A stretch of DNA of 64,000 bases from a virus. Both the position numbers and the translations under genes were made by a program. The DNA is taken from positions 23,182-87,181 of IMG/VR virus record IMGVR_UViG_3300032240_001244, one strand, 5' to 3'. Below the pieces are notes generated by a model. The model was not told the origin of the DNA and searched no databases. It worked only from the letters and a program-made list of their open reading frames with translations. The first letter of the stretch is position 1. The number at the start of each line of letters is the position of its first letter. Below are positions 29,139 through 41,715 of the stretch, one piece after another.

Positions 29139-29477
29139 ATGAATCAGAAAGGAAAGAAGCAGTCGGTTAAAAAAAGAGTTGTGCCTTTTCTGAACTACAC
29201 AGTGAGAAACTTCTCAGACTATAATGAAATATCGGATATGGCAGAGACTCAAAAAATTATATTCGATAATCTTGTAGAAGCTATAAACTTTAGTGTAAGT
29301 AAAAATAAAAACCAAGCAGACATTTTTAAATTAAATGAAGATGTTTGTGTAACTTTGGAAAAAGAAAAGTGGGCAACATCTCTTAAAAAAGCTATAGAGT
29401 TTTACTCTTCAACTGAGGTGGAAGACTACGAAAAATGTAAACAGTGTAGAGATATTATTGAAAAAATAACGTTATGA
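29139..29477 (+). CDS. hypothetical protein with C-terminal UVR-like helix (EDYEKC..CRD)
   Basis: 112 aa ORF. Confidence 0.6.
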   Translation: MNQKGKKQSVKKRVVPFLNYTVRNFSDYNEISDMAETQKIIFDNLVEAINFSVSKNKNQADIFKLNEDVCVTLEKEKWATSLKKAIEFYSSTEVEDYEKCKQCRDIIEKITL

Positions 29478-29887
29478 AAAAAGACTTCGACCCAGATAAT
29501 AGCCACGATCAAAATGTAAAGATTGCAATAGATAAGATCATTGGACAGGAAACTTCATTTAGGAAGCTAAAGAAAACACAAGAAGACCACAAAAGGATTC
29601 TATTTGTTAGAATAATAGAGTCCATAATAAATGCAGAAGAAAGAGCAATAGGGTTGGATGAAGGATTTCAAATGGATATGACCAAATATAATCAACTGTT
29701 CTTTGATATTATTACAGACTTCTTTTCATTTACTTTCAATAAACAACAGGTCAATCTTATTAACTTCTACTTGTACGACAGATACGCTGCGGATGGATCT
29801 GTACTTGATTTAATAAACGATGATGAGACTGTAGTACCATTACACACACCAAATGATCTTTGGTATCTATTGAACAAAAATGAATAG
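29474..29887 (+). CDS. hypothetical protein
   Basis: 137 aa ORF, ATGA-coupled. Confidence 0.7.
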   Translation: MKKDFDPDNSHDQNVKIAIDKIIGQETSFRKLKKTQEDHKRILFVRIIESIINAEERAIGLDEGFQMDMTKYNQLFFDIITDFFSFTFNKQQVNLINFYLYDRYAADGSVLDLINDDETVVPLHTPNDLWYLLNKNE

Positions 29888-29889
29888 TT

Positions 29890-30591
29890 ATGCAAATCAA
29901 ATCTTTCAAAAAAGAGAAATCTAATAGAGGGCAAGACCTTAATATAGAAAGGCAAGCTATTGAAAGAGCTATGAGAGATACTATGTCAAACAAAGCTGCG
30001 GCAAGGTTCTTAGGAGTATCTTTTAAAACATATAAGAAATACGCCCAGATGTACCGTAATGAAGATGGTATAACCTTATATGAGCTACATAAGAACCAAG
30101 CTGCTAAAGGTATTCCTAAGTTTGGCAAGAGGAGGCATGACAAGGCTTCCATCATGGATATCATGGAAGGGAGAGTCCCTAAAACATTTGTATCAATTAA
30201 AATATTAAAACATCAAATAATACAGCATGGAATCTTAAAAGAAGAATGTTGTAGGTGTGGATTCAAAGAGCAGCGTGTATTAGATTACAAGACCCCTCTT
30301 ATAATGAATTTTAGGGATGGAGATAAAAAAAATTGGGCTTTAGAAAACATAGAATTTCTATGCTATAATTGTTTTTTTCTTTGTGTAGGAGAAGTTTTTA
30401 CAAATAAACAACTGTCTGTAATGGAAGATTTTACAGATTTAAGATCTGTTAAAATAGATCTAGACTTGCCAGTAAAACATGAGGAAGCCATAAAAGAATC
30501 AATTAACCTGGAAAATAAACATATTTATAGTAGTGAAGAAAGGCCAGAGGATTACGGAGATGATTTAATATCAACATTCAGAAGACGATGA
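29890..30591 (+). CDS. HTH plus degenerate HNH-like zinc-binding protein
   Basis: NKAAARFLGVSFKTYKKY (HTH); CCRC ... NFRDGDKKNWALENIEFLCYNC (HNH-like, catalytic His replaced). Confidence 0.65.
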   Translation: MQIKSFKKEKSNRGQDLNIERQAIERAMRDTMSNKAAARFLGVSFKTYKKYAQMYRNEDGITLYELHKNQAAKGIPKFGKRRHDKASIMDIMEGRVPKTFVSIKILKHQIIQHGILKEECCRCGFKEQRVLDYKTPLIMNFRDGDKKNWALENIEFLCYNCFFLCVGEVFTNKQLSVMEDFTDLRSVKIDLDLPVKHEEAIKESINLENKHIYSSEERPEDYGDDLISTFRRR

Positions 30592-30953
30592 AAAGAAAAG
30601 ATTACGTTGATAAAACTGCTGATGATCTTATAAAAAAGAAAGATGCTTCAGATAAGTTATTAGCGTTTGCTGGAAGAGCATCTAGTCTAACAGCGTTTTT
30701 AGTAAACAAGTCTAAGGAAGAGGTATTGATGAAGGAGGCTCATAAGAAACTACCAGCACTTAAAGAAAAGCTTGTAGAACATAAGGTATTTTTTGAAAGG
30801 AAGACAATAAAAAGTGATAATATAAGGAACTTAAACAATGAGATCACCAAGTGTGAAAAGTTTATTGAAGGGTTGGGAGAAAAAACTACTATTGAGGATC
30901 TCAAAATTATTTTGGACTGGTACTATAAAACCTCGGAGAAATATGGATTTTGA
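30588..30953 (+). CDS. hypothetical protein
   Basis: 121 aa ORF. Confidence 0.6.
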   Translation: MKRKDYVDKTADDLIKKKDASDKLLAFAGRASSLTAFLVNKSKEEVLMKEAHKKLPALKEKLVEHKVFFERKTIKSDNIRNLNNEITKCEKFIEGLGEKTTIEDLKIILDWYYKTSEKYGF

Positions 30954-31281
30954 TGCTGAAGACTTGTATATAATAGAAGTCAGTGATAAGGATATGACAA
31001 TTAAGCAAGTTCTAGTGGAACACGAAAGAGCTTTGTCTTTAGCCATAGTAGAAAAAATTTGCTACGCTATGGACAATAACTTGAAAAAAATAAACATTGC
31101 TAGAATATACACAGACTCAATTGCAATAACACTTCATACTTCTTTACCAAGTTTCCAAGAGACTTTGGAGACAAACATTGAAAATCTCATAAAGCATGAG
31201 GAGTATGAGATGTGTGCTATAGGTAAAAAACACCTTGATATCCTAAAAGAAAAACCCGATAGAAAATATTTGAATATATAA
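30943..31281 (+). CDS. hypothetical protein with UVR-like EEYEMC helix
   Basis: Likely start ATG 30943; resembles the 29139 ORF C-terminus. Confidence 0.6.
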   Translation: MDFDAEDLYIIEVSDKDMTIKQVLVEHERALSLAIVEKICYAMDNNLKKINIARIYTDSIAITLHTSLPSFQETLETNIENLIKHEEYEMCAIGKKHLDILKEKPDRKYLNI

Positions 31282-31300
31282 ATATTTATATATATCTTTG
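31269..31300 (+). promoter_or_regulatory. Bacteroidota-type sigma70 promoter upstream of lipoprotein and tmRNA
   Basis: TTTG 31269-31272, 20-nt spacer, TATCTTTG 31293-31300. Confidence 0.7.
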
Positions 31301-31320
31301 TAAATATAATATAATATAAA

Positions 31321-31515
31321 ATGAAAAAAGCATTTATTATTTTTTTGTTATCTTTGTTTGTAGTATCCTGTGGAGGATCTAATGAAAGTAAACCTGTAGA
31401 AGCTACATATGCACCAGTAGGAGTTGATAGTTCAAATATACTACCTCCACTTACGGATAGTGCTAAGATTGAATTGAATGGAGAAAAACCAAAGCCACAG
31501 TTGAACGAGAATTAA
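31321..31515 (+). CDS. small lipoprotein
   Basis: Lipobox FVVSC after hydrophobic signal. Confidence 0.7.
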   Translation: MKKAFIIFLLSLFVVSCGGSNESKPVEATYAPVGVDSSNILPPLTDSAKIELNGEKPKPQLNEN

Positions 31516-31521
31516 AAATAA

Positions 31522-32207
31522 GGGCCTAACCGGTATCGATTCGTAATCGGAGGGTAGTACCACACGCAGAGATAAGTACTAGATCTCTTTAAACTCTGTA
31601 CAAAATATAAACGACGAAATGTCTACTATGACCTTCGATGACCTTATGGCCTTCGTTGGTGCCGATGAAGCAACATTTGCTTAGTCCGCCGAGGTGTCTA
31701 CAACCTCGCTTCAAACAAAGTGGAACACAGAGTTTCCCCGATCGACTCTTTAAATAAGGACTGGGGTGGTGGAAAGCTGTCTCCGGACAACCCCTTACTG
31801 ATCAGCTTGCAGATCAAAACTACGGTGCAGATGACGGGGGATCTCCCTCTTGATTGTCAGTACTAAGCGTGTGATATGCTGGTATTATTGTTCATTACGA
31901 AGACGTGGGTTTGTGGAATCGGACCCATCTAGTAGGAATACTAGATTAAAAACTGGATGAATTGCTGGAACTCCTATGACATAGGACAATCAGCAGCCAA
32001 GCCTAAAGTACACTTTAGGAAGGTTCAACGACTAGCGGAGAGATAAAGTTCTCTTAATAACCGCACTAGCGTCCAGCACCCAGATCGGGTGATGATATAG
32101 TCTGATCCTCTTGGTAACAAGAGTTGTAGTTCTTTACGAGGCTGTCTATGAAATCTAAAGTTTCTGGATCTAACAAAAGAATACCAGTGCGAATCCCACT
32201 AGGTCCA
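31522..32207 (+). ncRNA. ssrA: tmRNA interrupted by a group I intron (exon 1 31522-31911, exon 2 32190-32207)
   Basis: Acceptor GGGCCTA/TAGGTCC-A with G3.U wobble; helix 2 TCGTAAT/ATTACGA, GTAGTACCA/TGGTATTAT, CACGC/GCGTG; PK1 AGAGAT/ATCTCT; tag frame 31613-31684; T-arm GTGGG-TT|CGAAT-CCCAC restored on splicing. Confidence 0.92.
31912..32189 (+). mobile_element. group I intron (subgroup IA-like, no ORF) in tmRNA T-loop
   Basis: P1 GTGGGTT/GACCCAT with U.G at 5' splice site; P AATTGCTGGAA, Q AATCAGCAG, R GTTCAACGACTA, S ATGATATAGTCT; P3 CTGGATG/CGTCCAG; P8 CACCC/GGGTG; P9 with GTAA loop; terminal G 32189. Confidence 0.92.
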
Positions 32208-32240
32208 CTTAAAGGTTTAGGTTAGGATTATGGTTAAAAC

Positions 32241-32271
32241 GAAGGGGGGTTTCTACCCCCTTTCTCTTTTT
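32241..32271 (+). terminator. intrinsic terminator after tmRNA
   Basis: GAAGGGGGGT-TTCT-ACCCCCTTTC hairpin followed by T-rich tract. Confidence 0.8.
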
Positions 32272-32302
32272 GTATATATTTATATTAAACAAAATAATTT
32301 AT

Positions 32303-32824
32303 ATGAAAAGTTTAATGTTAGCAGTTATTGTTTTAATTGGGATGGTTTCATGTTCTAAAGTCCCAGACAATAAAGTACACGAATCCAAAGTAGAATTAGG
32401 CGGATTTCAGTACGATCCAATAGTAAAAAAACCGGTTCAAGTTCAAGAAGAGTATTATCAAATAGCACCTACATGGGGACAGGCTTTTGATTACGCTTCT
32501 AAGAGAAGTGATCACATTATTTATACTGTACTAGGGGTGATATTCTTAATAGCTTTCGTTGCTTTATTCTATGGAAAAGCCTCAGATGCTAGCTGGCTAC
32601 CTAAGTTCCTTGATAATGAAATTATATTTGTAGCTGCTTTATTTCTTCTAGTAGCATCTACAGTTACATTTTTTACTACCCATGCTTCTGAAGTTAGATG
32701 GCAAAATGACAAGTGGGTTAAAAAAGAAGTGTACGATAAGGCAATAAAAGAAGCAGGATCTACTCAGCCAATTTGGGATAGCCTTGAGGCCAATCATTTG
32801 ATCATAGGTGGACCATGGAAGTAG
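32303..32824 (+). CDS. membrane lipoprotein-like protein
   Basis: Lipobox GMVSC plus two further hydrophobic helices; ATG 32303. Confidence 0.65.
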   Translation: MKSLMLAVIVLIGMVSCSKVPDNKVHESKVELGGFQYDPIVKKPVQVQEEYYQIAPTWGQAFDYASKRSDHIIYTVLGVIFLIAFVALFYGKASDASWLPKFLDNEIIFVAALFLLVASTVTFFTTHASEVRWQNDKWVKKEVYDKAIKEAGSTQPIWDSLEANHLIIGGPWK

Positions 32825-33186
32825 TAGAAAGTCTTATACTGTCTTTATTATTCACAGGCATCAATATCGGGTTAGCCCGGTATGATGCTTGGAGAATAAA
32901 ACATAACATTAGAATAAGACATGCAATTAATGCTTTATTGTATTGTATTTTATTAATACCTTTCTATAGATGCCTATCAATTTATAATTTGATAGGTCTT
33001 TTATTAATTAGAATACCTGTGTTTAATACCTGTTTAAATGTGTTTAGGGGGCTATCTGCTACATACATAAGCCACACTACTACCAGTATAGTAGATAAAA
33101 TAATGAATGGTGTAGTAGAAAAGCTAGGGTATTGGGTATATCATATTATAATATACATCATAGCTATAGTATTAATATTTATGTAA
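32815..33186 (+). CDS. multi-pass membrane protein
   Basis: About four hydrophobic segments. Confidence 0.65.
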   Translation: MEVVESLILSLLFTGINIGLARYDAWRIKHNIRIRHAINALLYCILLIPFYRCLSIYNLIGLLLIRIPVFNTCLNVFRGLSATYISHTTTSIVDKIMNGVVEKLGYWVYHIIIYIIAIVLIFM

Positions 33187-33226
33187 AATAAAATAGAGAA
33201 TGTTCTTCTGAATAAATTTTAATAGT

Positions 33227-33472
33227 ATGAAGAAGTTTTTTCAAGATCTATTTAATGATAATAACAGTATTAATGAGAAAGCTGTTATAGGATTCATGTC
33301 ATTTGTAATGATGTGTGTATTTGCAATTACTGATATTGTTTTAGGTACTAAAAATAAAACACTAGTTATAAATGAATATATATTTGATGCGTTTAAATGG
33401 TTAACAGCTATTTGCTTTGGAATAGCCAGTGTGGATAAGTTTATAAACAAGAGATCTGAAAAGGGAGACTAG
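33227..33472 (+). CDS. small two-TM membrane protein (holin-like)
   Basis: Two hydrophobic helices, charged C-terminus. Confidence 0.55.
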   Translation: MKKFFQDLFNDNNSINEKAVIGFMSFVMMCVFAITDIVLGTKNKTLVINEYIFDAFKWLTAICFGIASVDKFINKRSEKGD

Positions 33473-33488
33473 TATTTTTTAAAATAAA

Positions 33489-33520
33489 TTTGTTTTATAT
33501 ATACATTATATTTATCTTTG
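33489..33520 (+). promoter_or_regulatory. Bacteroidota-type sigma70 promoter
   Basis: TTTG 33489-33492, 20-nt spacer, TATCTTTG 33513-33520. Confidence 0.7.
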
Positions 33521-33536
33521 ATAAAAATTAAAAGTT

Positions 33537-33707
33537 ATGAGTAACGCAAACATCACCCCAGAACAGCAATTGATTATAGAAAAAGTTGAATATCAACTAT
33601 CTGAAATCAAAGATCAGGATCTCCTCTACTCATCTATTAGAGAAATACTTTATAGTATCCCAAACAATTACGATTTAGGAGTAGTAATCAGACAATTATT
33701 TAGTTAA
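33537..33707 (+). CDS. small hypothetical protein
   Basis: Read by hand: MSNANITPEQQ...IPNNYDLGVVIRQLFS*, 56 aa, directly after promoter. Confidence 0.6.
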   Translation: MSNANITPEQQLIIEKVEYQLSEIKDQDLLYSSIREILYSIPNNYDLGVVIRQLFS

Positions 33708-33722
33708 AAAACGCATAATGAT

Positions 33723-34013
33723 ATGGCAGAGTTTTCAAAACAATGGTGTGAAATTTGGGACCCTTCTATGCCTCATGACTTTGATATTGAGGATATTATA
33801 AAAGATATGAATAGAGATAGGTATTATCCTATAGTATGCGAAGGCTTTGGTTTTAATTGTATACATAAAGATGCGCATGGGAATATATGGCTATCTTATG
33901 GGTATGATAAAGATGGCAACAGTACTAGTTGGAGAAGATATAAGACTGTCTTGCTAGAAGAAAAGAAAAAAACACCAAATAATGAAAATTGCAGTATTCA
34001 GCGACACTCATAA
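33723..34013 (+). CDS. hypothetical protein
   Basis: MAEFSKQWC ... CEGFG. Confidence 0.65.
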   Translation: MAEFSKQWCEIWDPSMPHDFDIEDIIKDMNRDRYYPIVCEGFGFNCIHKDAHGNIWLSYGYDKDGNSTSWRRYKTVLLEEKKKTPNNENCSIQRHS

Positions 34014-34719
34014 TAAACACAAACAAGTAACTCTTCCAGAGTGTGATATTGCTATATTTGCCGGAGATGCCACTTCGGTTGGACAAAAGCACGAAGTAGA
34101 GAGCTTCCTTAATTGGTACGGTAAGCAATATCAGTGTAAGCACAAAGTCTTTATTGCTGGTAATCATGATAAGTCTTTTGATAAAAAATTCTATAGAAAT
34201 TTTGAAGACCATGATTTATTTAAAGAGAACGAGCATCTAGGAAAGCCTGGGTGGTTAGTAGATATGTTAGAGAGAGCCAGAGTTGTATTAAATGTACAGT
34301 ATCTTGAAAATCAATCTAGTATTATAGAAGGTATAAAAATATGGGGTAGTCCTATTACTCCAAGTTTCTATAAACAATACTGGGCTTTCAATGCTGATAG
34401 AAATGAAGAGGTCCGATCTTATTGGGATAAAATTCCCCAAGATACCAACATAGTTGTTACTCACGGACCTGTTCATGGTAAACTAGATTATATACCAGAG
34501 AGTGGTGAATATGTAGGATGCGTGGATTTAAAATCCAAGATAGAAGAAATAAAACCTATGATGTTTATTTGTGGTCATATACATTCTGGAAGAGGGGTAT
34601 ATAACACAGATAAAACATTGTATGTCAATTCCTCTATAATGGATAATGCGTATAATAAACAAGGAGAGCCAATGGTATTTAAAATAAATGTGGATAAGAT
34701 GTATGTAGATTTTTATTAA
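33982..34719 (+). CDS. calcineurin-like metallophosphoesterase
   Basis: SDTH, AGD, AGNHD, THGP, GHIH. Confidence 0.9.
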   Translation: MKIAVFSDTHNKHKQVTLPECDIAIFAGDATSVGQKHEVESFLNWYGKQYQCKHKVFIAGNHDKSFDKKFYRNFEDHDLFKENEHLGKPGWLVDMLERARVVLNVQYLENQSSIIEGIKIWGSPITPSFYKQYWAFNADRNEEVRSYWDKIPQDTNIVVTHGPVHGKLDYIPESGEYVGCVDLKSKIEEIKPMMFICGHIHSGRGVYNTDKTLYVNSSIMDNAYNKQGEPMVFKINVDKMYVDFY

Positions 34720-34738
34720 CTTTTTGTATCTTTACATT

Positions 34739-34750
34739 AGTTCTTTGAAA
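34739..34750 (+). promoter_or_regulatory. boxA-like antitermination sequence
   Basis: AGTTCTTTGAAA just after a TATCTTTA promoter-like octamer, upstream of the ncRNA/tRNA island. Confidence 0.45.
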
Positions 34751-34798
34751 TAAAAAAGGTCGGCATGAACCGACCTATTAAAAGTAAAAGCAATAAAA

Positions 34799-34960
34799 TT
34801 AAGCTTTCTTAGATACTACAGACCATATTGAACCAACGATAGTCATAATGCCACCAATTACTTCAATAGAAACTCCTTCGCTAACAATACCTTTTGTTAC
34901 AAGGATACCACCAGCAAAAGTAAGAATGTGTCTTACAAGGCCTAAAATTTGATCTTTCAT
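34799..34960 (-). CDS. small two-TM membrane protein, putative holin
   Basis: Read by hand: MKDQILGLVRHILTFAGGILVTKGIVSEGVSIEVIGGIMTIVGSIWSVVSKKA*; own ATATTTAT motif upstream and hairpin 34758-34776 downstream. Confidence 0.7.
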   Translation of the reverse strand: MKDQILGLVRHILTFAGGILVTKGIVSEGVSIEVIGGIMTIVGSIWSVVSKKA

Positions 34961-35031
34961 GTTTGTTTGTTTTAATTAAAAATGCGTACCTTGTGGTACA
35001 CATATAAATATCTAAAAAATTAAAAATAATT

Positions 35032-35265
35032 AGCCCGAAGGCCACGGGATCGAAAATTCAGGAATGCCTCTCTAATTGCCTTGAGATAGTATCGACTAGG
35101 ATTACGAAGCACACTGCTCCTCTAGATCGTTAGCTAGCGGTGTAAAGCAATCCCACTGGAAAATAGGATTGCAAATAAGGTTGATTGGGATGAATGCAAG
35201 TGCATCATCGGTTAGAAATGCCAATCGTAAAAGCAGGTGTCCACGCACCCATCTCCTGCTTTCCT
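35032..35265 (+). ncRNA. candidate structured non-coding RNA(s), unassigned
   Basis: GC-richer ORF-free stretch with stems ACACTG/CGGTGT, GCAATCC/GGATTGC, GATTGG/CCAATC, GATG-ATGCA/TGCAT-CATC, AAAGCAGG/CCTGCTTT. Confidence 0.55.
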
Positions 35266-35369
35266 AAAATTATTGAGAGAAGAAGACGAAAGTGATTTTA
35301 TGGTCAGTGTACATATTCCATAGATAGCTCCTGACTACTAAACTATTTAATAATTAAAACAAAACAAAA

Positions 35370-35906
35370 ATGAAAAAATTTATTATTGATCCACTGCACT
35401 CAGAAATTGGGTTTAAAATTAAACACTTAATGATTTCGACTGTGACAGGTAATTTTGGAAAATTTAACGCAACTATGGAATCGGAATCGAGCGATTTTAC
35501 AGATGCAAAAATTAATTTTACAGCAGACGTTAATGCTCTGTCTACTAATATTTCCGATAGAGATCATCACTTAAAGTCACCTGATTTTTTTGATACAGAT
35601 AATTTTCCGAATATTACATTTGAGTCAACTAAAGTTGAAAAATTAGGAGAAGAATACGAAGTTTCTGGCAATCTAACTATTAAAAGCGTAACCCTACCAG
35701 TAAAGCTTAAAGGTACATACAATGGTAATGACGTTGATGCTTACGGACAAACAAAGTACGGTTTTGAGTTAGAGGGTAAAATTAACCGTAAGGATTGGGG
35801 ATTGACTTTTAATTTAGAAGGCGGCAAGGGCAGTTTACTTATTGGCGACGAAGTTAGACTTATAGTTAGTATTCAAATGACTGAACTCCAAAAAATAGAA
35901 GAGTAG
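35370..35906 (+). CDS. YceI family protein (polyisoprenoid-binding)
   Basis: IDPLHSEIGFKIKHLMISTVTG.F, RDHHLKSPDFFD, GNLTIK, INRKDWGL. Confidence 0.92.
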   Translation: MKKFIIDPLHSEIGFKIKHLMISTVTGNFGKFNATMESESSDFTDAKINFTADVNALSTNISDRDHHLKSPDFFDTDNFPNITFESTKVEKLGEEYEVSGNLTIKSVTLPVKLKGTYNGNDVDAYGQTKYGFELEGKINRKDWGLTFNLEGGKGSLLIGDEVRLIVSIQMTELQKIEE

Positions 35907-35908
35907 TA

Positions 35909-36793
35909 ATGGATAATAAAAATAAAATACTACTGGTAGTATCGGCATTAATCATGATTACATTCTTTGTAATAAAATCATTGTCTGTATTTGAATTAAT
36001 AGAATACACTAAACGCGTACAAGTATTCGAGTACCTTTGTTTTATTTTATTCTGCCCGCCGTCATTTATTTTTGTTAAGAATTTTTTAAGAAAAAAAGAC
36101 GGAGAACATCAACGGACGGTTGACCAATTAAGTTATAAAAATACATACTTAGAACACGCTGCTAAGATACTCAGGCACGATATGCACTCAGGAATCAATG
36201 TTTATATGCCAAAGGGTATCTCAGCGATAGAAAGAAAGTTACCCGGGGAAATAATAGAACGCTATAAATTAGAAAATTCTTTAAAATTATTAAAAGAGGG
36301 TTTATTGCATACTCAAAAAGTTTATAGAGGAGTTTATGAGTTTACTAATTTGGTTAAAGAAGGTAGTGGTATTGAATTAAAACCACATAAACTTTCTAAT
36401 ATTTTAATTTCGTATTTGGATTCAACATCATACAAAGAACAAGTTATATTCGATAGTTTTAGTTTACCGACTATTAATGTAAATGAACCTTTGTTTTGTA
36501 CCGCTATAGATAACTTGATTAGAAATGGTTTAAAGTATAATGATAGTGAAACTAAAGTTGTTGCTGTATATATGTTAGATGATAATACTTTAGTTGTTCA
36601 AGATAATGGCCGAGGAATGACAAATGAAGAATTTACCTATATGTCAAAGACAAATACTCGTAAAGAAAATCAAAAAGAAACTGGTTCCGGTTTAGGATTG
36701 GGTATTTGTGTTGCAATTTTGAATGAACATGGATTTAGTGCTAGTTGTGATAAAATTGAAGAAGGAACTCAAATTAAAATTAAAATTAAATAA
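35909..36793 (+). CDS. membrane sensor histidine kinase
   Basis: Two N-terminal TM helices, H-box-like LRHDMHS, N-box DNLIRNGLKY, G1 VQDNGRGM, G2 GSGLGLGI. Confidence 0.88.
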   Translation: MDNKNKILLVVSALIMITFFVIKSLSVFELIEYTKRVQVFEYLCFILFCPPSFIFVKNFLRKKDGEHQRTVDQLSYKNTYLEHAAKILRHDMHSGINVYMPKGISAIERKLPGEIIERYKLENSLKLLKEGLLHTQKVYRGVYEFTNLVKEGSGIELKPHKLSNILISYLDSTSYKEQVIFDSFSLPTINVNEPLFCTAIDNLIRNGLKYNDSETKVVAVYMLDDNTLVVQDNGRGMTNEEFTYMSKTNTRKENQKETGSGLGLGICVAILNEHGFSASCDKIEEGTQIKIKIK

Positions 36794-36799
36794 AAAAAA

Positions 36800-37231
36800 A
36801 TGATAAAATCAATTTTATTAGTAGACGATGAAAGTTTATTTCATCTTGTTTTTGAAGATGCGTGTAGCCTATTAGACATTGCATTACATCTCCATAGTAT
36901 AGACAGCTCGGATAAAGCTGAAAAATTATTTAAAGACTGGAATAAAAATCCAAATACTCGACCAGAGTGTGTTTTTGTTGATTTAAACATAGTCGGCAGC
37001 TCTTATGATGGTATTGAGCTTATTCGTAAGATTAATTTTGAATACGGTAATGGCGTTGTTATAGGAATAATTTCATCAAGTTCGGATAAAATGGAACAGG
37101 CTAAAGCAATACAAGCAGGAGCACAATTTTGGATTGTTAAATCAGATGAAATTGAACCTAGGCTCGAGGAATTTAAAAAAGACTATAGTGCATATCTAAA
37201 TAAAACCGCTTCTTTTAAAGTTTATCAGTAA
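36800..37231 (+). CDS. single-domain response regulator (receiver only)
   Basis: ILLVDD, FVDLN..DGIELI, ISSS, GA..WIVK; no output domain. Confidence 0.88.
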   Translation: MIKSILLVDDESLFHLVFEDACSLLDIALHLHSIDSSDKAEKLFKDWNKNPNTRPECVFVDLNIVGSSYDGIELIRKINFEYGNGVVIGIISSSSDKMEQAKAIQAGAQFWIVKSDEIEPRLEEFKKDYSAYLNKTASFKVYQ

Positions 37232-37244
37232 TAACTTCTAGCTT

Positions 37245-37805
37245 ATGATCAAATTTAATGCCGAATTAAAAAAACAAATAATCGACATTTACAATAAAAA
37301 TGGTATTTTTTTAGAGGGTAATATTCTTAAACTCATAGATGCTGAAAACGATAATCAATTTAAAGATTATCTTGAGAGGGCGATTAATAACGACAAAGAA
37401 ACCAGAAAAAAAAGATTAGATGTTACAAAACAAATTCAATCTCAAAATAAAGAATTGGTTGCAGCGCAGGAAAATAATTCTAAATTAATGGCAGAGCTCA
37501 CTGAAGCTCTACAAAAGGCTGAACGTGCAAAAAAAGACGCAGAAGATGATTTAGACTTATTACAAAAGAAGACCCAAACTGAGTTAATTGGAACAATCGT
37601 TAAAGTTGCTCTTGCTATTGTTATAGGCATAGGCGTTATGACCACTCTGTTATTTGCTACTGCATTTTTTTTAAATAAAGACACTACCTTATTAGGTAAT
37701 GCCTGGTCAAACATGTTTGGAATACTATTAACAAATTCTTTTAGTATTATTGGTACTATTATGGGAGTTAAGTATGCGACTGAAAATGGAAAAACTAAGA
37801 CTTAA
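37245..37805 (+). CDS. coiled-coil protein with two C-terminal TM helices
   Basis: Long heptad region, then two hydrophobic segments. Confidence 0.7.
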   Translation: MIKFNAELKKQIIDIYNKNGIFLEGNILKLIDAENDNQFKDYLERAINNDKETRKKRLDVTKQIQSQNKELVAAQENNSKLMAELTEALQKAERAKKDAEDDLDLLQKKTQTELIGTIVKVALAIVIGIGVMTTLLFATAFFLNKDTTLLGNAWSNMFGILLTNSFSIIGTIMGVKYATENGKTKT

Positions 37806-37813
37806 TAAATTTT

Positions 37814-37934
37814 GACACGCACGGCAACCGAAAGCATACTAGACACTGCTTAGGCAATGCGAGCAATCACGAAGAATACCTCACAGTGCGTAGGTAAGCT
37901 CTAAGTTCTTCTGACCGTGGGGAAAGGCCCATCA
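37814..37934 (+). ncRNA. candidate structured RNA A
   Basis: Stems AAGCA/TGCTT, GAAGAA/TTCTTC, TACCT/AGGTA, possible pseudoknot GAGC/GCTC; ends TGAC-..-TGGG GAAAGG CCCA. Confidence 0.5.
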
Positions 37935-37937
37935 TAT

Positions 37938-38028
37938 AGTCAGGTGGCGGAATGGTATTCGTTACAATGTGGGAAGACCCCTGCAACGTTCTAAAACCAC
38001 ACTACAGGTTCGAATCCTGTCCTGGCTA
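37938..38028 (+). ncRNA. tRNA-like RNA 1 without a canonical anticodon arm
   Basis: Acceptor AGTCAGG/CCTGGCT-A, D-arm GCGGAATGGTATTCGT, T-arm ACAGG-TTCGAAT-CCTGT; 41-nt middle has no 5-bp/7-nt anticodon arm. Confidence 0.72.
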
Positions 38029-38030
38029 CG

Positions 38031-38149
38031 AGGGGAAAGTAACTTAAAGGGAGCCCCAAATGGAGAATCTGTAAAATCTTTCTAGGTTATATACAGTGCG
38101 ACCGCCGGTAAAGATCTCAGCAAGTGACACACGGGGAGAGACCCGACCA
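38031..38149 (+). ncRNA. candidate structured RNA B
   Basis: Stems GGGG/CCCC, TGGAGA/TTTCTA, GGTT/GACC; ends TGAC-..-CGGG GAGAGA CCCG-ACCA. Confidence 0.5.
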
Positions 38150-38228
38150 AGTCAGGTGGGCGTAATGCGGGATGGTTCCCAAGTCCAATAGAATGGTTGC
38201 TTATCCGGTTCGAGTCCGGCCCTGACTA
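38150..38228 (+). ncRNA. tRNA-like RNA 2 without canonical D or anticodon arm
   Basis: Acceptor AGTCAGG/CCTGACT-A, T-arm CCGG-TTCGAGT-CCGG; middle forms small hairpins GGGA/TCCC and CCA/TGG. Confidence 0.7.
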
Positions 38229-38564
38229 CGCTGTTGTTCTTTGACATATAAGGAGAATCAAATTATGGATACATTATCATTCGCTTTAGGGATTGCGACT
38301 GTGGTGGTTATTGCTATTGCAATAGTTGCTGTTTATGCTTTCTTTAAGGTAAGAGAAGTAAAACAAGACAATAGTCTTTTTATTATGGATTTAGATAAAA
38401 GATTTGAAGATTTATATAACCTTCTAGGTAGAAATGAAGAAGCAATAAATCGGAAAATATATGAAGTAGAGCGAGATGTATACTCTGCATTAGACTCAAG
38501 ATTAGATAAACTAGAAAGTAAATTAACAATTAAAAAATAAAAAATAAGTTAAAGAACAACAGCG
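38229..38564. repeat. 17-bp inverted repeat (38229-38245 / 38548-38564) enclosing an ORF; left arm contains boxA-like TGTTCTTTGAC
   Basis: CGCTGTTGTTCTTTGAC pairs with GTTAAAGAACAACAGCG (16 Watson-Crick + 1 G.U). Confidence 0.85.
38265..38540 (+). CDS. membrane-anchored coiled-coil protein
   Basis: AGGAG at 38251-38255, ATG 38265, N-terminal TM helix, coiled-coil tail. Confidence 0.72.
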   Translation: MDTLSFALGIATVVVIAIAIVAVYAFFKVREVKQDNSLFIMDLDKRFEDLYNLLGRNEEAINRKIYEVERDVYSALDSRLDKLESKLTIKK

Positions 38565-38567
38565 CCC

Positions 38568-38641
38568 GGACTTATAGCTCAGTCGGTTAGAGCATCTGAC
38601 TCATAATCAGAGGGTCCCTGGTTCAAGCCCAGGTGAGTCCA
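38568..38641 (+). tRNA. tRNA with CAT anticodon, probably tRNA-Ile2 (lysidine), otherwise elongator Met
   Basis: GGACTTA/TGAGTCC-A acceptor, GCTC/GAGC D-stem, TCTGA-CTCATAA-TCAGA anticodon arm, CCTGG-TTCAAGC-CCAGG T-arm; CCA not encoded. Confidence 0.92.
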
Positions 38642-38671
38642 CTAAAATTTATTAAACATAAAATAAAAACT

Positions 38672-38882: not shown

Positions 38883-39107
38883 ATGAAAGCAACACTAGAA
38901 TTCGATCTGCCAGATGATCAAATAGATTTTGATTTTGCAACTAAAGGGCAAAAGTATTACAGCACTCTTTGGGAAATGGATCAATGGTTGAGAAGTCAGA
39001 TAAAATATAACGAGAAGCTAACTGATGAACAACATGATACATACGAAGCGTGTAGAGATCAGCTTAGAGAAATAATGAATGATAATAGTGTATCCTTTGA
39101 TGATTAA
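38883..39107 (+). CDS. hypothetical phage protein
   Basis: MKATLEFDLPDD... Confidence 0.7.
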   Translation: MKATLEFDLPDDQIDFDFATKGQKYYSTLWEMDQWLRSQIKYNEKLTDEQHDTYEACRDQLREIMNDNSVSFDD

Positions 39108-39117
39108 TAAATAGTTT

Positions 39118-39744
39118 ATGGAAAACAGTAAGTTTTATGTAAAGACTCCTTTCAAAGAAAGGTTTATAGATTTTATGAAAGGTCTATTGTTTTGGAAAGG
39201 AAGGAAGAAAGGTATGATTCATACTAGAGATATTAAGTGGGATGACATCCGTGCTGTGTTCTTTCCTAAAAACTTCTACGAGAAATACAAATACTTAGGA
39301 TCTGTGCCATGGAAGGAAGAAGGGGATATCTTTAAAGCTATGGAGCCATTAGTTATATTCATGGACTACAAGGCAAAACCATGGTGGTGTCCGAGATGGT
39401 TCTTAAGATTCTTACATTTGTTTGGTTCTGATAATTCTATTGTAAGAGTTCGGAACAGGACTCTATCTACTCTGGGACATAGGATCACAGGAGGTTACCT
39501 GATATTTGATTTTAAAACAAAATGGCAGAGTTACGATCTTAGAATCAGTGTATACGGTACTAGTCAAATGCAGGACCTATCTGACGCAATAGAGCGTAAG
39601 TTCTACGATGATGGAGTTAGGGTAGATTTGTATGAACAAATACTAGAACTAGACCCGAATACAAAATTCAGTCCAGGACATCTACCATCAGATCTAAGAA
39701 TTGAACTTGATAGATTAGAAAATTTAATTGAAAAAAATAAATAA
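39118..39744 (+). CDS. hypothetical protein
   Basis: 208 aa ORF. Confidence 0.7.
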   Translation: MENSKFYVKTPFKERFIDFMKGLLFWKGRKKGMIHTRDIKWDDIRAVFFPKNFYEKYKYLGSVPWKEEGDIFKAMEPLVIFMDYKAKPWWCPRWFLRFLHLFGSDNSIVRVRNRTLSTLGHRITGGYLIFDFKTKWQSYDLRISVYGTSQMQDLSDAIERKFYDDGVRVDLYEQILELDPNTKFSPGHLPSDLRIELDRLENLIEKNK

Positions 39745-40182: not shown

Positions 40183-40607
40183 GCCTAAAACCTATCCATA
40201 AGTTTAACGGAGGTATAGGGGCAACCTTATGCAATTCCTGTAGAGTTATCATATCAGAAGGTCATACAGATTTTCTATACTGCAAAGAGTGCGATCCTAT
40301 ATACTACAAAGCAAAGCAGGAAGAAGAGATAGAGATTGATTATAAAGATGAATCAAAGTATAGATTGTATAGATCGGATGGACTACAGAAGAGAGGAGAA
40401 AGTGCTATGTGGGTAGAATGGAATGAAAATGGTACATTTAAAGTCAGTCATAAAGAACCGGCTGTAGGCAGGAGTCTTATTATAGATGGGAATAAATTTA
40501 CTTATACATGGTTGACAACTCCTGTAAAAGAAATTTTGGAGCAGAAAGAAAATTTCATTAGCTTTACAACTAATAACAGCCAGTATAAACTATATACGTA
40601 TGAATAA
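40179..40607 (+). CDS. hypothetical protein with N-terminal zinc finger
   Basis: HKFNGG.GATLCNSC ... CKEC. Confidence 0.65.
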   Translation: MSLKPIHKFNGGIGATLCNSCRVIISEGHTDFLYCKECDPIYYKAKQEEEIEIDYKDESKYRLYRSDGLQKRGESAMWVEWNENGTFKVSHKEPAVGRSLIIDGNKFTYTWLTTPVKEILEQKENFISFTTNNSQYKLYTYE

Positions 40608-41715
40608 CTTGGACCGCCAATACAAAGAGCTACTACTTCAGATTATACATTTTGGAGTAGATAAAAAAGATAGAACAGGTACAGGAACCAAATCAATTTT
40701 CGGTTGGCAGATCAGACACAACATGAAAGAAGGGTTTCCATTATTAACTACAAAGAAGATGGCTTGGAAAACTATAGTGACCGAACTGCTGTGGTTTTTA
40801 AGAGGTGATACAAACATCAAATACCTTGTTGATAATGGTTGCCATATTTGGGATGGTGATGCTTATAAAAATTATTGTAAAAAGGTAATTCGTGATAAGG
40901 ATATTCTAAATTATTTAAAATCATATTCGCAGGACACAGACGGTGTTCCCACTATTGAACTTTATTCTAAAGAAGAGTTTATCAATAAGATAAAAACAGA
41001 CGAGAGATGGGCAAATAGTTGGGGTGATTTAGGACCAATCTATGGTAAGCAATGGAGAGAATGGGAAATATACAATAATGATGACGGGCCACCATGGCGA
41101 GATGTAGACCAAATTGCAAACTTAATATCGGAACTCAAAACAAATCCCGATAGCAGACGTTTAATGGTTAATGCTTGGAATGTGGCAAAGTTGGACCATA
41201 TGGTTTTACCACCTTGTCATTATGGATTTCAAGTTTATACGAGAGAGTTGAGTATAAAAGAACGAATTGAATTATGGGAGAAAATACCTACTAGAAATGT
41301 TATGGATTTTCCAATTGGAGAACTCACAGAAGAACAATATCATGAGGTATTAGATAAAATTGGAGTACAAAGAAGAGCAATCTCACTAATGTGGAATCAA
41401 CGTTCAGTAGATACATTCCTTGGTTTACCATTCAACATAGCATCTTATGGATTGCTACTTGAAATCATAGCCAAAGAAGTAAACATGATCCCAGAAGAAT
41501 TGATTGGTAATTTAGGTGATGTTCATTTATACAATAATCATTTAGAACAAGCAGCAGAACAATGTTCAAGACATCCTTATGAATTACCTAAATTAAAAAT
41601 TAATTTTGATGTTGTTCATAAAGATTGGGAATGTTTACCTCCTTATAATGTTTCTGATTTCACAATAGAAAACTATCAATCACACACAGCGATCAAAGCA
41701 CCGCTGTCAAATTAA
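40600..41715 (+). CDS. thyA: thymidylate synthase
   Basis: DRTGTGT, FPLLTTK, ELLWFL, LGPIYG.QWR, SRR, LPPCH, QRSVD..LGLPFN. Confidence 0.96.
   Translation: MNNLDRQYKELLLQIIHFGVDKKDRTGTGTKSIFGWQIRHNMKEGFPLLTTKKMAWKTIVTELLWFLRGDTNIKYLVDNGCHIWDGDAYKNYCKKVIRDKDILNYLKSYSQDTDGVPTIELYSKEEFINKIKTDERWANSWGDLGPIYGKQWREWEIYNNDDGPPWRDVDQIANLISELKTNPDSRRLMVNAWNVAKLDHMVLPPCHYGFQVYTRELSIKERIELWEKIPTRNVMDFPIGELTEEQYHEVLDKIGVQRRAISLMWNQRSVDTFLGLPFNIASYGLLLEIIAKEVNMIPEELIGNLGDVHLYNNHLEQAAEQCSRHPYELPKLKINFDVVHKDWECLPPYNVSDFTIENYQSHTAIKAPLSN

Follow-up and report, generated by a model that had tools for sequence, protein, structure and literature searches.

A 64,000-nucleotide stretch of viral DNA (hereafter the window; bases 23182 to 87181 of the 87,181-bp IMG/VR record IMGVR_UViG_3300032240_001244, whose completeness is estimated by CheckV at 51%) encodes, at positions 35370 to 37805, a YceI-like protein, a histidine kinase, a stand-alone receiver, and a coiled-coil protein that ends in a hairpin of two transmembrane (TM) segments. 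The kinase, the receiver, and the hairpin protein form a fixed, virus-restricted trio that is found in hundreds of uncultured phage contigs. Comparison of these contigs suggests a mobile, phage-specific phosphorelay cassette that would act by protein contact on a lysis-linked membrane effector, a reading that we regard as evenly poised between right and wrong. The four genes are the following.

35370..35906, plus strand: leaderless YceI-like protein of 178 amino acids (aa); PF04264, E value of 4.5e-46
35909..36793, plus strand: minimal membrane histidine kinase of 294 aa; HATPase_c, E value of 2.7e-12, with two TM segments
36800..37231, plus strand: stand-alone receiver of 143 aa; Response_reg, E value of 3.6e-09
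37245..37805, plus strand: virus-only candidate effector of 186 aa (the fourth protein), consisting of an N-terminal domain (N-domain), a coiled coil, and a two-TM hairpin; alignment of 52 sequences

All four open reading frames (ORFs) are on the plus strand and are separated by gaps of 2, 6, and 13 nucleotides (nt). Their positions are exactly those given in an earlier interpretation of this DNA (the sequence-only reading), which had described four tightly packed genes, a kinase with two TM helices and almost no periplasmic loop, and a regulator with no output domain; each of these descriptions holds. Taken as a whole, that interpretation stands in part: its proposals of contact signaling to the fourth protein and of a link to lysis are supported, whereas those of a recent capture from a host and of a four-gene unit are not. 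The window also encodes DnaB, ribonucleotide reductase, DNA polymerase, GroEL, and thymidylate synthase, and the part of the record upstream of the window encodes a tail fiber, tail sheath, tail tube, and baseplate hub. This content of replication and tail genes indicates that the source is a large tailed phage.

The gene arrangement is not due to chance, because the same order of kinase, receiver, and fourth gene recurs in other viral contigs. A scan of IMG/VR seeded with the kinase matched at least 598 stretches, at least 585 of which encode a relative of this kinase, and 80 of the latter were kept as trio loci. With the window proteins as tblastn queries, the kinase was detected in all 80 of them, the receiver in 76, the fourth protein in 71, and YceI in 21, and the order of the three core genes is the same in all 80 loci kept. 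Most of the missing receiver and fourth genes belong to loci that end soon after the kinase gene (L012, L015, L017, L019, L045, L046, L049, L072, and L076); in L040, no receiver was matched though the fourth gene is present. Among the matches listed, those of the kinase range from 100% down to approximately 53% identity and those of YceI down to 62%; these are metagenome proteins of the same lengths, several of them encoded on contigs of 150 to 350 kb, and a few of the kinases have an added GAF domain. The view expressed in the sequence-only reading that two-component systems are uncommon in phages is borne out for GenBank phages, since the 50,697 records of the INPHARED set yielded no match to the DNA of the block (blastn) or to the kinase or receiver (tblastn), but not for uncultured viral contigs, given the abundance just described.

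Among 185,579 species genomes, the fourth-protein family is present in only four, all of them metagenome-assembled genomes (MAGs), which belong to four different phyla and each contain the trio. Three of the MAG loci were tested for phage-type neighbors: one has PHROG families nearby, another has T4-type topoisomerase II subunits, and for the remaining one no PHROG match was obtained. An exhaustive profile search with the fourth protein against 1.84 billion representatives found 254 clusters at an E value of ≤0.001, and its neighbor clusters in the ESM Atlas are 100% viral. Two of the MAG loci have peculiarities of their own. In L085 (MAG labeled Alphaproteobacteria), each trio gene was recovered in two tblastn pieces, which may reflect long-read frameshifts or a decaying copy. 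In L084 (MAG labeled Gemmatimonadota), the trio-bearing contig has numerous long ORFs that overlap one another on the two strands, a pattern that suggests a high GC content (which was not itself computed), and the trio may not be limited to low-GC phages. No description of a phage module composed of a kinase, a receiver, and a membrane protein was found in the published literature covered, which did not extend to supplementary gene lists; the receiver-like domain described in the accessible portion of PMC7824862 is a different, kinase-independent one.

Of the genes in the module, that of the receiver is the most conserved, with a mean column identity of 75% in an alignment of 54 sequences and 65 to 77% identity to the window copy. 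Its Response_reg domain spans residues 5 to 115 of 143 and is followed only by a 28-aa tail, and the protein has no hydrophobic segment. Residues D9, D10, E11, D61, S92 to S94, W111, and K114 are invariant in the 54 sequences, so that the window protein has the acidic pocket, acceptor Asp, Ser/Thr, and Lys that characterize two-component receivers. Its best solved relative by name is the 146-aa response regulator 3ilh (E value of 8.7e-07).

In the fourth protein, hydropathy analysis places two hydrophobic segments (residues 114 to 132 and 157 to 175) behind a charged N-terminal part of 113 residues and ahead of a tail with a charge of +2. The alignment of 52 sequences shows a conserved N-domain (approximately residues 1 to 70) with an LEGN motif followed by an R/K-rich stretch, a coiled coil that varies in length by up to about 40 residues, and a second conserved stretch just before the first TM helix. 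The invariant positions are W154, I160 to N164, F166 to I168, G170 to G174, and K176; hardly any variation is seen in the second TM helix, which has polar and small residues (T163, N164, S167, G170, and G174). No relative was found among solved chains, the best match (E value of 0.07) being coiled-coil noise. In one 348-aa protein (P0183), the N-domain and coil are fused to a FecCD-type permease (PF01032, E value of 7e-49); it is probably a chimeric gene call or an assembly artifact.

Natural domain swaps divide the fourth protein into two parts. In one group of relatives, identified by Pfam, the hairpin is fused to sensor domains in the combinations GAF-coil-hairpin (P0154), PAS-PAS-coil-hairpin (P0173), and PAS-coil-hairpin (P0177), which suggests that cytoplasmic sensors can drive the hairpin directly, as an output module; judging from the PAS and GAF domains of these fusions, the N terminus of the hairpin would be cytoplasmic. 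In another group (P0250, P0258, P0267, P0270, and P0271), a HisKA/HATPase kinase takes the place of the hairpin after the N-domain and coil, which suggests that the N-domain is an input module able to drive another output. Approximately 22 full-length clusters of such N-domain-kinase fusions were obtained by protein search, one of them labeled as a Bacteroidota MAG; two fusions (P0398 and P0401) are encoded on contigs of 30.9 and 16.6 kb, respectively. In viral contigs, none were detected by a single-sequence scan and none by a degenerate motif scan; a metagenome scan with the alignment of these fusions returned classical trios only, its "long" matches consisting of the kinase core and the N-domain of neighboring genes, and an ESM Atlas search with P0258 returned generic kinases only.

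The genes that accompany each part tell which components belong together. From 253 IMG/VR stretches encoding a relative of the PAS-PAS-hairpin protein, 80 fused-form loci were kept, which match nearly the whole query (from residues 1 to 3 through residues 363 to 371) at 75 to 99% identity; neither the kinase nor the receiver was found in any of these 80. A further set comprised 80 metagenome loci with the N-domain motif, for which counts are limited to the loci with enough sequence (62, 70, or 27, depending on the gene). There, at most 120 nt separate the end of the receiver gene from the N-domain downstream of it (62 of 62 loci), the hairpin lies 3' of the N-domain in 70 of 70, and a kinase gene is within 2.5 kb upstream in 24 of 27, the exceptions being L316, L325, and L328. 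It is thus with the N-domain that the receiver is associated, rather than with the hairpin or, strictly, with the kinase. From this co-occurrence of genes, we infer that the phosphorylated receiver may act on the N-domain of the fourth protein, which lends comparative support to the idea of the sequence-only reading that the regulator signals to the fourth protein by contact.

The kinase has two hydrophobic segments (residues 7 to 25 and approximately 37 to 60) separated by a loop of about 11 residues, its core begins at about residue 70, and HATPase_c covers residues 196 to 293. It has the two N-terminal TM helices, the short linker, and the lack of any other input domain by which intramembrane-sensing kinases are defined. 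In 34 short-form kinases, the motif YLEHAAKI.RHDMHSG.N, the N box (DNLIRNGLKYND), the G1 box (DNGRG), and the G2 box (G.GLGL) are invariant. By these features, the window protein is an intact-looking short-loop membrane kinase, with a divergent dimerization/His region ahead of its ATP-binding domain. The closest solved relative is HK853 (2c2a; E value of 4.9e-13), with an alignment that starts only at the second helix. The invariant motif contains three His residues (H83, H90, and H93) at the expected distance before the helix that aligns to HK853; by this spacing, and with HK853 numbered as we take it to be, the phospho-acceptor should be H90 or H93.

A single kinase core is kept, as judged by sequence, behind many input domains. 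The membrane forms have two TM segments only (approximately 294 aa, as in the window) or two TM segments and a PAS domain (approximately 410 aa); larger ones have two TM segments followed by GAF and one or two PAS domains (590 to 743 aa) or a periplasmic part with a coil and a TM segment (approximately 485 aa); soluble forms with no TM segment include a PAS form of 359 aa and one of 333 aa. Two further arrangements were seen around the kinase. In L012, L013, L015, L038, L044, L072, L075, and other loci, two kinases of this family flank a coiled-coil protein of approximately 200 aa (cluster c9) with a signal-like N terminus, and the second kinase of these double-kinase modules has a periplasmic part. 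In L064, L069, L073, L074, L079, and L081, as well as in L324, a patatin-like phospholipase (PF01734, E value of 3.6e-21; cluster c23) is encoded between the kinase and the receiver.

The four-gene unit assumed in the sequence-only reading is to be replaced by a core of three genes, with YceI as an optional addition found in 19 to 21 of the 80 trio loci. YceI family proteins (PF04264) bind polyisoprenoids. The window protein matches this family over residues 6 to 169 of 178 with 157.4 bits (cutoff, 23.7). It has no hydrophobic segment by hydropathy, and with the domain starting at residue 6, it appears to lack a signal peptide; the same is true of all 19 locus copies, in which the domain likewise begins directly. 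It differs from characterized relatives also in its score of 121.9 bits against the NCBIfam equivalog NF002994 (the secreted Escherichia coli form), below the 232-bit cutoff, and in its fixed place beside a phage kinase gene: wherever present (19 loci), yceI adjoins the kinase gene, either before or after it. The top 120 database matches of YceI are 153 to 207 aa long, 62 to 90% identical, and all from metagenomes. In 20 other loci, 18 of them with short kinases, a 62-aa membrane protein (cluster c7) is encoded just upstream of the kinase, and none of the 80 loci has both YceI and c7. YceI and c7 are two mutually exclusive optional accessories placed beside the kinase, a pattern that fits sensor-domain-less kinases relying on a partner. 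YceI is the obvious candidate for signal delivery to the sensor-less kinase of the window, and the known ligands of its family suggest that the signal could be an isoprenoid, a quinone, or a carrier lipid.

A connection with lysis comes from the neighborhood of the hairpin in relatives. Three clusters of neighboring proteins are endolysin-type: c3 (PG_binding_1 and GH19; phrog_181 endolysin, E value of 9e-68), c8 (phrog_33083 endolysin, E value of 2.3e-11), and c11 (Peptidase_M15_3, E value of 1.5e-22). Two more are holin-like, c6 by weak holin matches (E value of 1.4e-4) and c4, a family of 81- to 98-aa proteins with no family match, by features only. With 50% query coverage required, a c3, c8, or c11 gene is present in 68 of the 80 fused-form loci, 46 of the 80 trio loci, and none of 80 control loci seeded with the GroEL of the window, counts that come from related phages and not from independent samples and that are compared with control phages which may be other lineages using other endolysins. 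In 67 of the 80 fused-form loci, such a gene lies no more than 1.5 kb from the part that encodes the hairpin, and in 56 of the 80, a c4 homolog, the commonest neighbor of the hairpin gene in relatives, is within 1.2 kb of that part. This neighborhood supports the link to lysis that the sequence-only reading had suggested, and lysis control is the best-supported, albeit unproven, function of the cassette.

The window itself has the following features upstream of the four genes.

35277..35369, plus strand: cassette leader and left boundary (blastn and alignment with sibling records)
34799..34960, minus strand: holin-family gene of 53 aa; PF23987 Phage_holin_10, E value of 1e-16
33227..33472, plus strand: small membrane protein of 81 aa, cluster c4, holin-like by features only; homologs lie beside the hairpin gene in relatives

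The holin gene, of the Pam3 gp28 family, starts 409 nt upstream of yceI and is divergent from it, and the c4 homolog is 1.9 kb upstream; the latter has one segment above the hydropathy threshold and a second, weaker one read by eye. A ATATTTAT box is found 22 to 50 nt before the tail sheath, tail tube, baseplate hub, holin-family, and c4-homolog genes and several others (examples in the window start at 33227, 33537, 32303, and, on the minus strand, 34960); ahead of the holin-family gene, the distance is 50 nt. This box is probably the structural or late promoter of the phage group. The cassette has TATTTAA at 35344 to 35350, 26 nt before the yceI start and followed by an A-rich leader. Among 58 distinct relatives, 21 have TATTTAT within 90 nt of the start of the module operon, versus 3.9% of random 90-nt windows. 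Late expression of the cassette is plausible on these grounds.

These observations can be combined in a working model. The kinase, which has no sensor domain of its own, would use its two TM helices to read a lipid cue (an isoprenoid, a quinone, or a carrier lipid) that is either borne by the membrane or delivered by YceI, and it would autophosphorylate on a His of the invariant RHDMHSG motif; the phosphate would move from there to Asp61 of the receiver, and the receiver, once phosphorylated, would bind the fourth protein at its cytoplasmic N-domain. Through the coiled coil, this docking would then reach the hairpin and alter its packing or oligomerization in the inner membrane. The likeliest output would be control of holin-type membrane permeabilization, that is, of lysis timing, because the hairpin gene adjoins endolysins and small holin-like proteins in relatives. 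The hairpin could be a regulated holin or an antiholin; between these roles, and as to the sign of the regulation, the sequence cannot tell.

Besides the relatedness of the loci and the choice of control phages noted above, several results weigh against this model. The trio is less tied to endolysins than the fused form is, with an endolysin-type gene within 1.5 kb in 9 of 71 loci and within 3 kb in 27 of 71. The three endolysin types of the relatives were not found by tblastn in the 87-kb record of the window, which is 51% complete; of all neighbor clusters of the relatives used as tblastn queries on this record, only the c4 homolog and one weak c39 match were recovered, and Pfam and PHROG scans of the neighbors at 29474 to 33472 and 38883 to 39744 found no lysis enzyme. 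The fourth protein has no match above the cutoff to any Pfam or PHROG family and none to a holin family. As for phosphotransfer, the window kinase has no HisKA-type match in Pfam, its His segment alone gave 0 matches to solved chains, and hhalign against the HisKA-bearing N-domain-kinase fusions aligned only the ATP-binding domain, not the His region. The box before the cassette is an imperfect copy of the structural-gene box. Finally, among the sibling records compared (G002 and G003, with GroEL 94 to 95% identical to that of the window, and G004, with GroEL 83% identical), neither the trio nor the fused form is present at either site of G002 (46% complete) or anywhere in the record of G004 (80% complete), and with two siblings lacking the module, it appears to be dispensable.

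In the strongest competing explanation, the host envelope is still the target of the relay and the hairpin, but lysis timing is not the purpose: they might arrest the host by a controlled ion leak or energy drain, exclude superinfecting phages, or control the traffic of cell-wall precursors, and the lysis genes would be mere neighbors in a region of membrane genes. Consistent with it are the lack of a holin family match for the hairpin, the distance of more than 1.5 kb to the nearest endolysin in many trio loci, the patatin between kinase and receiver in six of these loci, the membrane character of the small proteins c7 and c10, and the separate holin-like genes (c6 and c4) that relatives often carry. 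However, endolysin genes are strongly enriched in varied arrangements, on either side of the hairpin and in both orientations, and no PADLOC defense family fits: the sole match of the four proteins was a weak one to LeoBC (E value of 1.2e-4, 19.4 bits) on the coiled-coil part of the fourth protein. We consider such a role improbable, if well worth keeping in mind.

Still less probable, in our judgment, is an arrangement in which the fourth protein serves as a membrane co-sensor of the kinase and the receiver acts on a host target (a motor, protease adaptor, or transcription factor). Kinases with two TM helices and a short loop usually need a partner, and the window kinase is of this kind; the near-invariance of the second hairpin helix is also what a fixed protein contact would produce. 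On the other hand, the hairpin exists with no kinase at all in the 80 fused-form loci and beside the receiver with no nearby kinase in 3 of 27 loci, some trio loci have soluble kinases with no TM segment (359 and 333 aa, each as one of two kinase genes), and the presence of the N-domain follows that of the receiver (62 of 62).

The comparison with sibling phages shows how the cassette is inserted. Positions 33481 to 35276 and 37807 to 38651 are collinear with sibling locus L248, from which 35277 to 37806 are absent (blastn and alignment); at the G003 junction, the base before the leader is joined directly to the base after the stop codon of the fourth gene, and the indel boundaries at 35277 and 37806 share a short AAAT/T.TTGA microhomology. 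In G003 (GroEL 94% identical), a fused PAS-PAS-hairpin gene, with no receiver, is found approximately 1.8 kb upstream, right after the c4 homolog. The module is an accessory, exchangeable cassette, and the trio and the fused form are, by sequence, alternative wirings within one lysis-type neighborhood. The block is a clean indel, and the sequence on either side of it is collinear with that of two sibling phage records, so the chimeric host DNA or assembly chimera considered in the sequence-only reading is unlikely. A recently captured or chimeric piece of host DNA with no phage role is very improbable: it might draw on the slightly AT-rich composition of the four genes (GC content at third codon positions of 0.21 to 0.25, versus a genome mean of 0.28 with a standard deviation of 0.07), on their codon-usage distance at the 82nd to 95th percentile of 79 genes, and on the indel itself, but the codon measure is inflated for short genes, the flanks match those of sibling phages to the base, the closest relatives of all four genes are on long viral contigs, the hairpin family is virus-only, and the residues invariant in the alignments of the kinase, receiver, and fourth protein are all retained. 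The codon-usage comparison with the flanks, named in the sequence-only reading as a check, amounts to a mild deviation confounded by gene length, and the recent acquisition from a Bacteroidota host proposed there does not hold up against a virus-restricted fourth protein, kinase and YceI matches that are metagenome proteins of the same lengths, and a composition near that of the flanks.

Around the cassette, the sequence-only reading had placed an island of noncoding RNAs, in which Rfam at the gathering score detects only a group I intron (31901 to 32124) and a tRNA-Met (38568 to 38641); over 34900 to 35400, there was no Rfam match even at an E value of ≤1. The GC-richer, apparently structured noncoding stretch at 35030 to 35276, upstream of the cassette, is 75 to 80% conserved over the flank in siblings that have no cassette. 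It was considered as a cassette-specific leader or riboswitch and rejected because of this conservation; being kept in cassette-free siblings, it is an independent element. Directly 3' of the cassette, a spacer with tRNA-like elements (37807 to 38240) is 72 to 80% conserved in both siblings (L247 and L248), and short pieces of it (38003 to 38030) occur twice in G002. The thymidylate synthase gene (40600 to 41715) is absent at the syntenic site of G002 (L247) and 60% identical in G003, with neighbors at 84 to 85%, which points to another exchangeable cassette.

A phosphorelay that acts by contact on a lysis-linked effector, the reading we prefer, shares parts with several known systems. In staphylococci and Bacillus, LytSR with LrgAB/CidAB is a two-component system tied to holin- and antiholin-like membrane proteins and is thought to respond to the state of the membrane. 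The likeness lies in that linkage, but LytR is a DNA-binding transcription regulator, whereas the window receiver has no output domain and no LytTR match in Pfam or NCBIfam; LytS is a multi-TM sensor, whereas the window kinase has two TM segments and no LytS-type match in those databases; and the window membrane protein, part of a phage-borne system, has no match to the Lrg/Cid or holin families. Single-domain receivers act by protein contact in pathways of the CheA-CheY-FliM type. The window receiver likewise has no output domain and keeps the aromatic switch position and the Lys (W111 and K114); its kinase, however, is a membrane protein with an ATP-binding domain like that of the HisKA-class HK853 and not of CheA, and the proposed target is a membrane protein encoded by the neighboring gene. 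Intramembrane-sensing kinases with accessory partners are exemplified by BceS-BceAB and LiaS-LiaF. The window kinase is similar to them in its two TM helices, very short loop, lack of any other input domain, and adjacent accessory gene, but in its family the accessory role falls to a 62-aa membrane protein or to a lipid-binding protein of the cytoplasm, the partner regulator is no transcription factor, and some of the kinases bear PAS or GAF domains.

Class II holins and pinholins have two TM helices with both ends in the cytoplasm. The fourth protein resembles them in its predicted two-TM hairpin, short basic tail, spacing of small residues (S167, G170, and G174), and endolysin-adjacent placement in relatives; it differs in its 113-residue, putatively cytoplasmic extension and its lack of a family match, and it is known from sequence alone. 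In T4 lysis inhibition, as presented in the accessible parts of two accounts (PMC11413866 and PMC8385771), holin T works with the antiholins RI and RIII. The resemblance there is that holin triggering is adjusted to a sensed signal through holin-binding proteins on either side of the membrane; as far as these accounts extend, T4 uses no phosphorelay, and the four window proteins match no PHROG lysis family.

We tentatively propose, at less than even confidence, that large uncultured phages may time lysis through a phosphorelay of their own, in which YceI would aid lipid or quinone sensing and the receiver would switch a new kind of regulated holin or antiholin, with siblings fusing PAS or GAF sensors to the same hairpin. 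If true, phage lysis would for the first time be seen to come under posttranslational control by a two-component system, and receiver domains would gain a new class of output. The natural swaps (sensor-hairpin fusions, N-domain-kinase fusions, and trios with or without YceI or c7) make the hypothesis directly testable with few proteins, and the module could serve synthetic biology as a compact signal-to-membrane switch. Environmental phages carry the trio widely (at least 585 viral contigs), whereas it is absent from the GenBank phage records searched. Lysis timing sets phage fitness, and apart from T-even lysis inhibition and a handful of other examples, very little is known of how it is adjusted to the state of the host; a phage-owned phosphorelay acting on a membrane effector would, if true, represent a new mode of host sensing by a virus.

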